From a virus (taxonomy: Duplodnaviria > Caudoviricetes): DNA of 64,000 nucleotides. Numbering within the stretch: position 1 is the first letter of the stretch; each line of letters starts with the position of its first letter. Made by a program: the position numbers and the translations under genes. A model generated the notes under the pieces. It was not told the DNA's origin, made no database searches, and saw only the letters and a list, made by a program, of their open reading frames with translations. The stretch lies in the IMG/VR virus record IMGVR_UViG_3300027917_004314; one strand, 5' to 3'. This document shows positions 43,550-47,014 of this stretch, in pieces.

Positions 43550-43623
43550 TGCCCCATAGCTCAACGGTAGAGCAAGCGGCTTATAACCGTTAGATCCAGG
43601 TTCAACTCCTGGTGGGGCGACCA
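43550..43623 (+). tRNA. tRNA-Ile (anticodon TAT)
   Basis: Full cloverleaf, loop CT-TAT-AA, encoded CCA. Confidence 0.9.
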
Positions 43624-43625
43624 AT

Positions 43626-43702
43626 GGATCCTTAGCTCAGTTGGTTAGAGCTGCCGGCTCATAACCGGTCGGTCGCTGGTTCGAATCCAGCAGGGTCCAC
43701 CA
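43626..43702 (+). tRNA. tRNA with CAT anticodon, probably Ile2 (lysidine); elongator Met not excluded
   Basis: Cloverleaf, loop CT-CAT-AA, encoded CCA; body resembles bacterial Ile2 tRNAs. Confidence 0.88.
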
Positions 43703-43711
43703 AACACCAAT

Positions 43712-43787
43712 GGGCCCATAGCTCAGTTGGTAGAGCAACGGACTTTTAATCCGTTGGCCGCAGGTTCAACTCCTGCTGGGCTCACCA
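43712..43787 (+). tRNA. tRNA-Lys (TTT)
   Basis: Cloverleaf, loop CT-TTT-AA, encoded CCA. Confidence 0.93.
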
Positions 43788-44067
43788 AATATGATCCAGC
43801 GCCATTGGCGCTCATCACCATGAAAGATCTACCATATATACATACACTTATGTGTGTGATCCTAGATCCGAAGCGAGGGTGGGTGCCGTAAACCTGTGAA
43901 TTTAAAGCGTTATATGAGGGCACCGGGGGGGCTCTCGTGCTATACGTAAAAATTCCCAAAATGGCGTATAAGTTCTTGGGAATACTGGTGTTATGGCTCT
44001 TAAGCCTATTATCTCCTTCCCCGATGAATAGGGGATTCGGCCCAAGAGGGCCGTAAAAGGAGATAGC

Positions 44068-44304
44068 ATGATTAAGACGGCAAAGGAACTGAGAGACTCG
44101 GGTCTCGGCACGGCTGAGGTCCGAAGCAACCTGGACGCTTCTGGCTGGACCCTTCTGCATACAGAAGTCGTCAGGTACTGTCACGACGATGGTAGCCCTG
44201 TGGGCTACCAGTGGTGGCGGAACCCGTCCGCCGAGATCGTACACACGCGTCTAACGTGTGTGGGAGTAATCGCAGCCTCGGCAGTGGCCGTGCTGCAGTT
44301 GTAG
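44068..44304 (+). CDS. hypothetical protein
   Basis: AAGGAG RBS. Confidence 0.65.
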   Translation: MIKTAKELRDSGLGTAEVRSNLDASGWTLLHTEVVRYCHDDGSPVGYQWWRNPSAEIVHTRLTCVGVIAASAVAVLQL

Positions 44305-44384
44305 CAACTAGAAGCCGAACAGCAGGTAACACCTGGTAAGGAAGAGAGCTGTCTAGCACTGCCAGGGGCTTCTATGAAGAGTTG

Positions 44385-44486
44385 CAATACATTTCCTTGC
44401 AACTTAGGGAAACTCCTACATAAACATGGTGGTAGGGGCTCAGCCCAGGGCGTTAGCCAAGCCTTAAGTTGTAGGGAAATGTGTTG
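44385..44486 (+). ncRNA. long G-U-containing hairpin RNA element
   Basis: About 24-bp stem 44385-44408/44462-44486; mismatches at DNA level are G-U pairs on the + strand. Confidence 0.55.
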
Positions 44487-45127
44487 TAGAGTTTTAAGAT
44501 CCCGATTTTGTTCTGGAAAAAATTTTTCTGGAACAGGCGTATAACTTTTTGTTATGTAGTACGGAAGAGAGACGATGGATTAGGTTGGTGCTCAAGTGTC
44601 CAGAGTGTGGGCATCACCTTTGTTAGTTTTAGCTTATGGGCTGAGGTGTTACAAGGACCTACTGGTCCTCCATCTCTCATGGACCCCTGCGTGAACGGGC
44701 ACGTAGGGAGAGATGTAAAGGCTCCATGTAGTCTGTATAGGATAGGTGGGAGGCTCCTGCCGAGCTTGGAATACCACCCTGACTTATTGGGGCGAGGAGC
44801 GAGGCTAATAGGAGACTTGGCACCTCAACTCATAAGTGTAATACAACTCCAACAATCTGAGGGCGTTGGCGTAGTTAGGCATGCCATGTTGACGCGCTTG
44901 GTCTTTCCTACCTCGGGCAACCAAGGAGACTTGGGCAACAACGAAGTAGATGTGGCCATGGTGATACGTGTCCATGGTTTAGGGGAATTGTGAGACCTCG
45001 CAAACCTACACAGCGTTCCCGGTCCTCATTGTCTTGCTCCCATTTGAGCGGGGATGAGGGTGAGAAAGAGAGGCTGAGTTATAGATCTTCTTTGCTTGGG
45101 AATCCGGAACTCAAGCAAGGAGGAGCA

Positions 45128-45691
45128 ATGGAGATTCGACGTATGTGGACCATGATCGCTACGATCTGTTGTCTTTCTAAGCGTGGCGATAAGTGGGTTG
45201 CCAAGGTATCGGAAGGGAGCAAGGTAATCCTCTTGGACAAAAGCTCTCGTCATTCTGTCGAGCCGGGCATGAAGGTGCCTGTGGACATCGCCAAGGAGAT
45301 CGAGAGTTGCATGTTCGGTCGCATCGAGACCGGCATCTTCATCAACGGTCGCGGGGTCTGGCTTCCCCTCGATATCGAATTCGAGAATGACAGAGCGGTC
45401 CTAGAGGCTGCCAAGGTCATCAAGAAGAAGTGGGACGAAGACGCCGAGAAGCACAAGGCGGAAGCGGCGAAGTATGCTGCTGAGCAGGCCGAACGAAAGC
45501 TAGTGGTCGAAAGACTGCTGGACTTGGCGACTCGAAAGCCTGCTGGCAATTACATGAGTCGCATTCAGAAGAGGGACAAGGCTCCCTTGACTTCTGAGGA
45601 GAAGGAGACGATCCGAGCGTATTTCCAGCTGCCGCCGTGGGGAGTGACCGATCGCGGCGAATTCATCGTCACGGACTCTTGCACTGACTAG
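45128..45691 (+). CDS. hypothetical protein
   Basis: AAGGAGGAG RBS, ATG 45128. Confidence 0.75.
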   Translation: MEIRRMWTMIATICCLSKRGDKWVAKVSEGSKVILLDKSSRHSVEPGMKVPVDIAKEIESCMFGRIETGIFINGRGVWLPLDIEFENDRAVLEAAKVIKKKWDEDAEKHKAEAAKYAAEQAERKLVVERLLDLATRKPAGNYMSRIQKRDKAPLTSEEKETIRAYFQLPPWGVTDRGEFIVTDSCTD

Positions 45692-45698
45692 AGTTCAA

Positions 45699-45774
45699 GA
45701 AACCTAACCTGCTCTGGGCAGGCTCCATGATAAGGACATGGAGGAAAGCGGTTCGAATCCGCTAGGTTTCGCCA
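45699..45774 (+). ncRNA. anticodon-less tRNA-like element, GRRACCT/AGGTTTC family, copy 1
   Basis: GAAACCT/AGGTTTC-G-CCA; CCTGC-TCTGG-GCAGG; 7-bp middle stem; AGCGG-TTCGAAT-CCGCT. Confidence 0.8.
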
Positions 45775-45790
45775 TCAACAAGGAGGAGGC

Positions 45791-46003
45791 ATGGAGGTCG
45801 AGCGTTTCAAGTGCCCAGGGTGTGGGGCACTAAACGCTCCTGAGATGCAATTGGAAAAGCATCGCGGGAGATTGGGCTTTTTGTTGTACCGCAAAGAGCC
45901 CGGTCGTGATGGGTTATACGGTGATGAGGACTGCGCTTTTGTGGCGTGGTGCGATAAGTGCCAGGCGACTCATCATGACGGGCGTTACTCTGCGCCGAAG
46001 TAA
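45791..46003 (+). CDS. zinc-ribbon protein
   Basis: GGAGG RBS; CPGC...CDKC. Confidence 0.7.
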   Translation: MEVERFKCPGCGALNAPEMQLEKHRGRLGFLLYRKEPGRDGLYGDEDCAFVAWCDKCQATHHDGRYSAPK

Positions 46004-46020
46004 CAACTAAGGAGGAGGTG

Positions 46021-46140
46021 GTGTACCACGTTTACATCGTATATTGCATCTTGGTATGGATGGAGTACACGATCACATCCATCATTCCTGGCGGTAGGAC
46101 TTTGGCGATCATCGATGCAATCTTCAAGAAACTTCTGTAG
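46021..46140 (+). CDS. small hydrophobic peptide (39 aa)
   Basis: AGGAGGAGG RBS, GTG start. Confidence 0.5.
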   Translation: MYHVYIVYCILVWMEYTITSIIPGGRTLAIIDAIFKKLL

Positions 46141-46153
46141 CCCGGATTTCAAC

Positions 46154-46231
46154 GAGACCTAGCCCATATGTTGGTGGGGACCGGCGATCTTTGATCGCGG
46201 TTGTGGTGGTTCGACTCCATCAGGTTTCGCT
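46154..46231 (+). ncRNA. anticodon-less tRNA-like element, family copy 2
   Basis: GAGACCT/AGGTTTC; middle stem with TTT loop; GGTGG-TTCGACT-CCATC. Confidence 0.75.
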
Positions 46232-46248
46232 GCCGAAAGGAGACGGTA

Positions 46249-46359
46249 ATGGAGTGTCCAGTGTGCAAAGGTAAGGGAGAAGTCTACAGCGCACTCCATG
46301 GTAAGAAGACGTGTCCTTGCTGCTTTGGGCGCGGGCATGTGAAGAAGCGTAACAGATAA
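46249..46359 (+). CDS. DnaJ-type zinc-finger microprotein (36 aa)
   Basis: CPVCKGKG...CPCCFGRG; AAGGAG RBS. Confidence 0.65.
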   Translation: MECPVCKGKGEVYSALHGKKTCPCCFGRGHVKKRNR

Positions 46360-46373
46360 AAGGAGGTATCCGT

Positions 46374-46580
46374 ATGGACAGACTAATCCGGTCTCTCGGA
46401 TGGCAACTTGGAAAGAAGTTGCCACAGGGACCCTTGTGGTCCGAAGAGCCTCACCAGGAGGACTTGGGAAGGCTCCGCGACCTGCTTGGCCGCGAGCCGA
46501 CCCTTGATGAGGCGGAGACCTTTTCCTGGGAGTTCAGGCTTTCCAGGAGAAGGCAGCAGGCGACGGCGTACCGGGGGTAG
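46374..46580 (+). CDS. hypothetical protein
   Basis: AGGAGG RBS. Confidence 0.65.
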   Translation: MDRLIRSLGWQLGKKLPQGPLWSEEPHQEDLGRLRDLLGREPTLDEAETFSWEFRLSRRRQQATAYRG

Positions 46581-46937
46581 AGTACAGCGACCGGCTAGCA
46601 TGGTGGTCTTGGGACCAAGCTGGTCGCGCCGGGTGCAGCAAATCAATCTGCCTTTAAAACAGGCTTCCACGCGCAAAATTGTGAGATCGCGCACAGTGTG
46701 GAAGTGCGCTAGAGTTCGGTTGCTGCATGGTAAAGTGGGAGGGTGCTTTACCAATCTATTGGCACCGGCGCGTTAGACTCTGCTCGTCTTTGGACGGCGT
46801 GAGGTGTGCCCTCGAAAGGGGTTTACAAGAGAAGGCTAACGCAGGTGGGATCGCAGGAAGTGGGGCATCTCACCAACTTTTAGTTTTGGGTATAATGTAA
46901 TTCGGCGTGGCAATTTGCGCATACTAGTATGCATTAT

Positions 46938-47014
46938 CGACCCTTAGCGCAGTCCGGTAGCGCAGGCGTCTTATAAGCGTCAGGTCCCGGGTTCGAATCC
47001 CGGAGGGTCGACCA
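46938..47014 (+). tRNA. tRNA-Ile (TAT), second divergent copy
   Basis: CGACCCT/AGGGTCG-A-CCA; loop CT-TAT-AA. Confidence 0.88.

Follow-up and report, generated by a model that had tools for sequence, protein, structure and literature searches.

The 64,000-nucleotide stretch of Caudoviricetes DNA that we analyzed here (IMG/VR record IMGVR_UViG_3300027917_004314, hereafter the window) carries three transfer RNA (tRNA) genes that are predicted to serve the isoleucine codon AUA. Two of them have a UAU anticodon and the third has a CAU anticodon of the Ile2 type, an expected substrate for lysidine modification. Bacteria normally have no tRNA-Ile(UAU) and read AUA with a CAU tRNA whose lysidine is made by TilS (PMC8007984, PMC3575796). 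We consider it likely, though far from certain, that all three genes are functional AUA decoders and that, together with the tRNA-Lys(UUU) and tRNA-Glu(UUC) genes of the same region, they would raise the supply of those tRNAs that the AT-rich genes of this phage demand most. Statistics within the genome and across related phages give good support to the core of this interpretation, i.e., the match between tRNA genes and codon usage, and we infer that the phage tRNAs are expressed, processed, modified, and charged and that translation benefits from them. As such, this uncultured phage of ca. 461 kb would be one more example of phage-borne tRNAs matched to the codons of the phage itself, a theme that is already established (PMC10688831, PMC12482277).

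Genes for tRNAs were called with ARAGORN and the Rfam model RF00005 (gathering score 29 bits). ARAGORN reports 13 elements in the window, 10 of which reach the Rfam gathering score (nine tRNA matches and one transfer-messenger RNA, tmRNA); the additional calls at 45699, 46154, and 62283 fall below it and were left out of the count. Six of the genes are canonical tRNAs, all encoded on the + strand and surrounded by co-directional open reading frames (ORFs). Three of these form a tight cluster with spacers of only 2 and 9 nt, composed of tRNA-Ile(UAU) copy 1 (43550–43623; 74 nt, Rfam 66.0 bits), the CAU tRNA (43626–43702; 77 nt, 68.9 bits), and tRNA-Lys(UUU) (43712–43787; 77.3 bits). Further downstream lie tRNA-Ile(UAU) copy 2 (46938–47014; 77 nt, 65.1 bits), tRNA-Glu(UUC) (48474–48546; 65.8 bits), and tRNA-Val(UAC) (50225–50299; 67.1 bits). 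All six are called by both programs, including the lysine, glutamate, and valine genes that a preliminary description of this DNA had listed. Both UAU tRNAs and the CAU tRNA show a regular cloverleaf with a 7-nt anticodon loop, U33, A37, A38, A73, and an encoded CCA end.

The preliminary description had assigned the CAU tRNA to the Ile2 type, and comparison to E. coli bears this out. A match over at least 80% of its length is present in all of the complete E. coli genomes searched (5426/5426), and the best eight matches listed are all annotated as tRNA-Ile; one of them adjoins mug, and we take this gene to be ileX. Aligned with the K-12 reference genes and these matches, the CAU tRNA is 86% identical to the tRNA at the ileX position and 83% identical to a second tRNA-Ile(CAU), compared to 72% for metT/metU and 62% for the initiator metZ. 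In initiator tRNAs, positions 1 and 72 are mismatched and the anticodon stem closes with three G-C pairs in a row; because the CAU tRNA has a paired G1-C72 and C-G rather than G-C at 29-41, it is not an initiator. By sequence comparison it groups with annotated Ile2 tRNAs and not with those for Met or fMet. Work by Ikeuchi et al. from 2005 is said to have defined C4-G69 and C5-G68 as the acceptor-stem determinants of E. coli TilS. Here, the acceptor stem combines a U4-G69 wobble with C5-G68; TilS determinants vary among bacterial lineages.

The two tRNA(UAU) genes are only 74% identical to each other, in agreement with their earlier description as divergent. Among the tRNAs aligned, copy 1 is closest to the adjacent tRNA-Lys(UUU) (78%) and to E. 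coli ileX (75%), and copy 2 to the CAU tRNA of the window (76%). Outside the anticodon, the identity elements for E. coli isoleucyl-tRNA synthetase (IleRS) reportedly comprise A73, C4-G69, C29-G41, and U12-A23 (Nureki et al. 1994). Copy 1 has all four of them (alongside U1-G72, A37, and A38) and copy 2 has three of four, with G12-C23 replacing U12-A23 next to the same C4-G69, C29-G41, A37, A38, and A73. Both are plain class I tRNAs with variable loops of 4 and 5 nt and no extra arm. BLAST searches against 50,697 phage records revealed no close family for either copy, with full-length matches at only 74–79% (82–88% over partial stretches) to subjects that are annotated as Met, Arg, Pro, Ile, or Asn tRNAs. 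A 20-nt search pattern from the anticodon arm of copy 2 has exact matches on four IMG/VR contigs, all inside tRNA(UAU) genes, where the aligned identity runs over ca. 21 nt and the neighbors are other U34 tRNAs; an exact 20-mer from copy 1 has zero matches in IMG/VR. The hexamer ATGCAT is found 22 nt upstream of copy 1 (43522–43527) and 3 nt upstream of copy 2 (46929–46934), at the latter site as part of the palindrome GCATACTAGTATGC (46919–46932), and may have a role in processing or as a promoter element, unless it is there by chance.

The resemblance of copy 1 to its tRNA-Lys(UUU) neighbor, from which its anticodon is one base apart, could be taken to mean that the UAU genes are no isoleucine tRNAs at all. 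They could instead be drifted copies, carriers of another amino acid, or processing signals like the several non-canonical tRNA-like elements found in the same region. We regard this as very unlikely, given that both copies have an intact cloverleaf and anticodon loop along with A73, C4-G69, C29-G41, A37, and A38, and that tRNA(UAU) is conserved in four related phages (see below). In addition, the meaning of the codon itself can be read from the ribonucleotide reductase (RNR) gene of the window, in which 31 ATA, 25 ATT, and 4 ATC codons for isoleucine are found. Across 73 homologues, the 31 ATA positions align with Ile at a frequency of 0.55, followed by Val (0.11), Leu (0.10), Lys (0.05), and Met (0.03); for comparison, ATT positions align with Ile at 0.39. 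Judging from this alignment, ATA is read as isoleucine in this phage, which removes a recoding of AUA by the lysine-like copy 1.

Demand for these tRNAs is apparent from the left part of the window. Its AT-rich block (1–41450, + strand; GC ca. 0.36–0.48 per 2 kb and 0.40 overall) makes heavy use of ATA, AAA, and GAA. Between 41451 and 41900, the GC content then switches from 0.30–0.35 to 0.48–0.65 within ca. 400 bp. The GC-rich region beyond (41900–64000, + strand; ca. 52%) contains all tRNAs, the tmRNA, and small ORFs, with ATA-using genes mixed among ATA-avoiding ones that are GC-rich at third codon positions (GC3-rich). In the 51 AT-rich + strand genes left of 41.5 kb (13,205 codons), ATA accounts for 410 of 942 Ile codons (0.44, or 31 per 1000). 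The neutral expectation from third positions of four-fold sites is 0.37, so ATA is not avoided in these genes but slightly over-used. AAA makes up 0.72 of their Lys codons and GAA 0.69 of their Glu codons. If the 14 A-ending sense codons are ranked by their excess per 1000 in the AT-rich genes over the right-half ORFs, the top three are AAA, GAA, and ATA, and each of them has a tRNA in the window. Given that the window has four decoder species, the chance that four random codons of the 14 include all of the top three is 11/1001. The G34 tRNAs that read C-ending codons also read their T-ending partners, so the T-ending codons ranked among them (GAT, AAT, TAT, and ATT) need no extra tRNA species.

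The tRNA set of the window thus fits the AT-rich genes of the phage, as the preliminary description had proposed, and its example of an ATA-heavy gene at 39571–41160 (32 ATA, 9 ATT, and 11 ATC) is accurate. Its label of these genes as late, and of the GC3-rich ones as early, is unjustified, however. The AT-rich class holds virion-type proteins, an endolysin, and methionine aminopeptidase, but it also has DnaB, PhoH, a sigma factor, thymidylate synthase and kinase, and a class II-like RNR, which are hardly typical of late genes.

Near-identity DNA searches with both halves of the window against the 50,697 phage records gave tRNA-sized matches only, and single-protein locus searches in IMG/VR (with 44990–45691, 39571–41160, the topoisomerase polyprotein, and the RNR) returned nothing. 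Relatives were found by RNR alignment alone, which retrieved seven IMG/VR contigs, and we examined five of them (G001 to G005) by a whole-record tRNA search and ARAGORN. Four of these are huge phages whose RNRs are 58–69% identical and that each carry one tRNA(UAU): G001 (318 kb, 40 tRNA genes called by ARAGORN), G002 (302 kb, 9 tRNA genes), G003 (442 kb and 100% complete, 22 tRNA genes), and G004 (340 kb, 14 tRNA genes). The fifth, G005 (189 kb, complete with terminal repeats), has 2 tRNA genes and no AUA decoder. The UAU genes have strongly diverged among the relatives (at most 78% identity), and two of them are unusual: the one of G004 (66659–66749) is 91 nt long and has an extra arm with a CUGAUAA loop that displays the ordinary Ile anticodon GAU, and the one of G003 (80337–80408) has the anticodon loop CCUAUAA in which C33 replaces the near-universal U33.

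The ratio of observed to expected ATA is 1.13 in the AT-rich block of the window (1–41,500) and, next to the RNR genes of the UAU carriers, 1.16 (G001), 0.92 (G002), 1.10 (G003), and 0.79 (G004). In G005, by contrast, it is 0.31 next to RNR (ATA 18/173 Ile codons, p = 4e-12). Carriage of tRNA(UAU) therefore goes with unrestrained ATA use in this clade. Two relatives also encode further parts of AUA decoding. G001 encodes an Ile2-like CAU tRNA (79% identical to that of the window) in a 52% GC stretch that it shares with tRNA-Lys(UUU) and tRNA-Glu(UUC), and G003 encodes a 227-amino-acid TilS N-domain protein, i.e., the catalytic domain only, between tRNA genes (218199–218882; TIGR02432, 112 bits compared to a cut-off of 93.6).

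The composition switch at 41.5–41.9 kb raises the question of whether the two halves of the window belong together, given that a chimeric assembly would place tRNAs and ATA-rich genes in different genomes. The GC step is indeed very sharp, and the right-half gene 44990–45691 has no homologue in a search of 5.8 billion proteins. We nevertheless consider such an artifact extremely unlikely because window genes of each half are found on contigs of 460,879 and 460,921 bp. Furthermore, the very relatives that were defined by their RNR encode homologues of right-half ORFs within their own tRNA regions, and these relatives show a similar contrast in composition. The ORFs in question are 44990–45691, 48566–48784, and 59310–60248, the last of which has homologues in two relatives. 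In G002, the homologue of 44990–45691 (53% identity) lies less than 1 kb from the Ile(UAU) and Lys(UUU) genes, and in the window this gene sits between the two tRNA(UAU) genes.

The GC-rich surroundings of the tRNAs could point to another role for the codon contrast. GC3-rich, ATA-avoiding genes around the tRNAs may be translated first with host tRNAs, and the AT-rich bulk of the genome may only be translated efficiently after phage tRNAs have accumulated, so that the tRNAs would act as a timing device. A set of 15 right-half + strand genes with GC3 of at least 0.55 fits this idea: with 12 ATA, 24 ATT, and 69 ATC codons (12/105), their ATA share is 0.11 compared to 0.24 expected (p = 0.003, in a test that is biased because GC3 served to select the genes), and they also favor AAG and GAG. 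The same tendency is seen in the tRNA-bearing regions of G002 (observed/expected 0.56), G003 (0.61 and 0.51), and G004 (0.45), i.e., 0.45–0.61 compared to 0.79–1.10 next to RNR, even though the overall GC content of these phages spans 31–55%. Homologous genes link these regions. The recurrence of ATA-poor, GC-richer tRNA neighborhoods across this range argues against a recent foreign origin and is compatible with a timing role but no proof of it. That early and late genes of phages can differ in their codons is documented (PMC5683454, cited in PMC12482277).

Several observations do not fit such a timing role. The claim of the preliminary description that GC3-rich genes use ATC is correct for genes like 44990–45691 (ATA 0, ATT 2, ATC 12) but not for the GC-rich half as a whole, which is a mosaic. 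Other right-half + strand ORFs use ATA for 48 of 121 Ile codons (ca. 0.40), including 59310–60248 that has homologues in the relatives, so that there are two codon classes of genes and not two clean halves. In addition, replication genes belong to the AT-rich class, and the 34-tRNA region of G001 is not ATA-poor (observed/expected 1.28). We therefore view a timing device as rather unlikely. A similarly low probability applies to the broader proposal of a portable toolkit for AUA decoding in this clade, made up of UAU tRNAs and an Ile2 tRNA plus a short TilS in one of its members, and of two sense-codon dialects that together form a translational timer. As part of the same timer, the genes readable first would be the GC3-rich, ATA-, AAA-, and GAA-poor ones around the tRNAs, which we likewise regard as doubtful.

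Alternatively, the tRNAs might not supplement codon usage but serve as spares against the loss of host tRNAs, either to host anticodon nucleases or through phage degradation of host RNA and DNA. The tRNAs of the window are all U34 or Ile2 species and include classical nuclease targets: PrrC-type anticodon nucleases cut tRNA-Lys(UUU), and others cut tRNA-Glu(UUC). Two sequence-divergent UAU copies could similarly be a hedge. A study of phage Sf14 favors the replacement of destroyed host tRNAs as a model (PMC12482277). Yet spares of this kind leave unexplained why ATA avoidance vanishes only in relatives that carry tRNA(UAU) and why each of the three A-ending codons with the strongest enrichment has a tRNA. 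For tRNA-Ile2, we know of no anticodon nuclease, which further counts against this explanation. We assign it a small share of the probability, and it is not mutually exclusive with a codon supplement.

If the three genes are indeed AUA decoders, this codon would be served by two routes. On the first, the CAU tRNA would receive lysidine at position 34 from TilS and would then be charged by IleRS, with TilS supplied by the host unless the remaining ca. 400 kb of the phage genome encode one. On the second, the UAU tRNAs would need no TilS but an IleRS that tolerates U34, a requirement that the preliminary description had overlooked. A search of the window for TilS was negative, with the best tblastn match (E = 0.07) lacking the SGGxDS motif on inspection. 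Homologues of the G003 protein with ca. 200 amino acids are common in metagenomes, several of them on contigs of ca. 280–320 kb, though none of the best 120 listed is on the 460.9-kb contig. IleRS (PF00133) was not found in the five relatives. An FAD enzyme at 28311–29432 is not a recognizable U34 enzyme of the MnmG or TrmFO type, since its N-terminal FAD-binding fold alone matches. The suggestion that the phage bypasses the lysidine pathway therefore stands only in part: the UAU tRNAs need no TilS, but the phage keeps a CAU tRNA that is expected to need lysidine, and relative G003 encodes a short TilS.

A scan of the window for consensus promoters and terminators showed no enrichment over shuffled sequence. 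The tRNA genes share the + strand with the ORFs around them and include the CCA end. Their products are probably excised from long transcripts, with RNase P and 3′ processing enzymes supplied by the host. No AUA-rich leader peptide was seen upstream of either UAU gene when checked by eye.

A number of points weigh against our interpretation, the first of which concern the tRNAs as enzyme substrates and decoders. With E. coli IleRS, charging of a UAU tRNA reaches only 1.1% of that of the lysidine-bearing (LAU) form (PMC3575796), and the UAU anticodon also binds and reads AUG on E. coli ribosomes (PMC3575796; see also PMC3919564), so UAU tRNAs could be poor or error-prone in many hosts. With charging by an E. 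coli-type IleRS at ca. 1%, the limiting partner may thus be IleRS and not TilS. Arg or Lys at the site equivalent to E. coli W905 restores UAU recognition in the IleRS of Mycoplasma mobile, Bacillus subtilis, and Lactobacillus, and a U34-accepting IleRS may have either this substitution or be of the eukaryote type (PMC3575796). Considering the costs in charging and AUG misreading, the presence of two UAU genes predicts a U34-tolerant host IleRS or a phage factor outside the window. Other points concern the statistics. The codon contrasts are measured within the phage genome and among related phages, not against a host; the UAU-less side of the ATA comparison is a single genome, G005, which makes it 4-versus-1; and the tRNA set is the content of a 64-kb window of a ca. 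461-kb genome and hence incomplete. Finally, tRNA-Val(UAC) misfits the codon ranking, because GTA is only weakly enriched and ranks eleventh of the 14 A-ending sense codons. The earlier claim that the additional tRNAs serve A-ending codons is therefore upheld for Lys(UUU) with AAA and Glu(UUC) with GAA but not for Val(UAC).

Clues to the host are sparse, and the earlier reading of a GC-rich host is a guess. An exact 29-mer scan for the CAU tRNA across 185,579 species genomes retrieved CAU tRNAs in only three. Two of these are on Chloroflexota contigs from metagenome-assembled genomes (one of them Anaerolineaceae) with a CAU tRNA that is 92% identical overall and a GC content of 56%, and the third is a Phycisphaeraceae genome with a CAU tRNA of 80% identity. 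In a search of 301 genomes of Chloroflexota, matches at 80–93% were obtained for the CAU and Lys tRNAs, and UAU copy 1 appears only once among the matches listed. We take the tRNA match to Chloroflexota as a weak hint at most. A BLAST search with the tmRNA of the window against five candidate host genomes gave no meaningful match.

Several other features of the window merit a brief description. The tmRNA gene (49259–49608) lies among the tRNAs and is full-length (Rfam 165 bits, model positions 1–374), though the ARAGORN prediction of its tag looks unreliable. Two tRNA-like genes at 42681–42781 and 47293–47389 (Rfam 46.9 and 40.6 bits) have an insert of ca. 25–30 nt in the anticodon region. Another tRNA-like element at 43055–43170, judged by eye only, has a T-arm followed by an ACCGCCA-type tail at its end. 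Directly abutting the intact tRNA-Val(UAC) gene at 50225, a 21-nt exact tandem duplicate of its 5′ part from acceptor strand to D loop is found at 50204–50224. In the AT-rich block, a PrkA-like kinase (37% identity to Thermus phage phiYS40) has two ORFs behind it, one of which matches a PHROG "sporulation protein"; together, these are possibly a trio of the PrkA/YeaH/SpoVR type. The same block encodes a type I methionine aminopeptidase (TIGR00500, 233 bits) as well as a sigma-70-family factor, and the positions of these features taken together are 3665–8248, 8736–9452, and 22660–23415.

We see the value of these data in a clean and internally controlled example from one clade of huge phages, in which ATA is used freely where AUA decoders are carried. 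Host prediction for such phages gains a concrete criterion, i.e., an IleRS that accepts U34. If the idea of two codon dialects were true, the timing of gene expression would be set by sense-codon supply, and this would be analogous to the stop-codon recoding switches of other large phages; otherwise, the system is ordinary phage tRNA supplementation.

Our search of the literature turned up no study devoted to tRNA-Ile(UAU) in phages. Close counterparts of these genes are known from bacteria. In Mycoplasma mobile (PMC3575796) and a suppressor of the B. subtilis tilS deletion (PMC3919564), a UAU anticodon is likewise displayed by an ordinary Ile-type class I tRNA. Lactobacillus plantarum and L. 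casei resemble the window in having a CAU Ile2 beside a UAU tRNA (PMC3575796; Tomikawa 2018, cited in PMC10688831). Unlike these TilS-independent bacterial tRNA-Ile(UAU) genes, those of the window are phage-borne and present as two diverged copies, and the IleRS and ribosome partners are documented only for the bacteria. Among phages, investment in AUA decoding by large viruses is known from the Pseudomonas jumbo phages MIJ3 and PA5oct that encode TilS (PMC6892783), to which the TilS N-domain protein within the tRNA region of G003 can be likened; in contrast to these phages, no TilS was found in our window, and the G003 protein has 227 amino acids with the catalytic domain only.

More broadly, tRNA sets that match phage codon usage have been described by Bailly-Bechet et al. 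2007 (PMC1987346, cited in PMC10688831) and for XacN1 (PMC5852040), and a tRNA-Ile2(CAU) of a Lactobacillus curvatus prophage has been linked to AUA use (PMC10688831). The window shares with such sets that its tRNAs serve heavily used codons, that AUA is a recurrent target, and that the genes are clustered. It differs from them in that the contrast is drawn within the phage and between related phages and not between phage and host, and in that three tRNAs of two different chemistries cover AUA.

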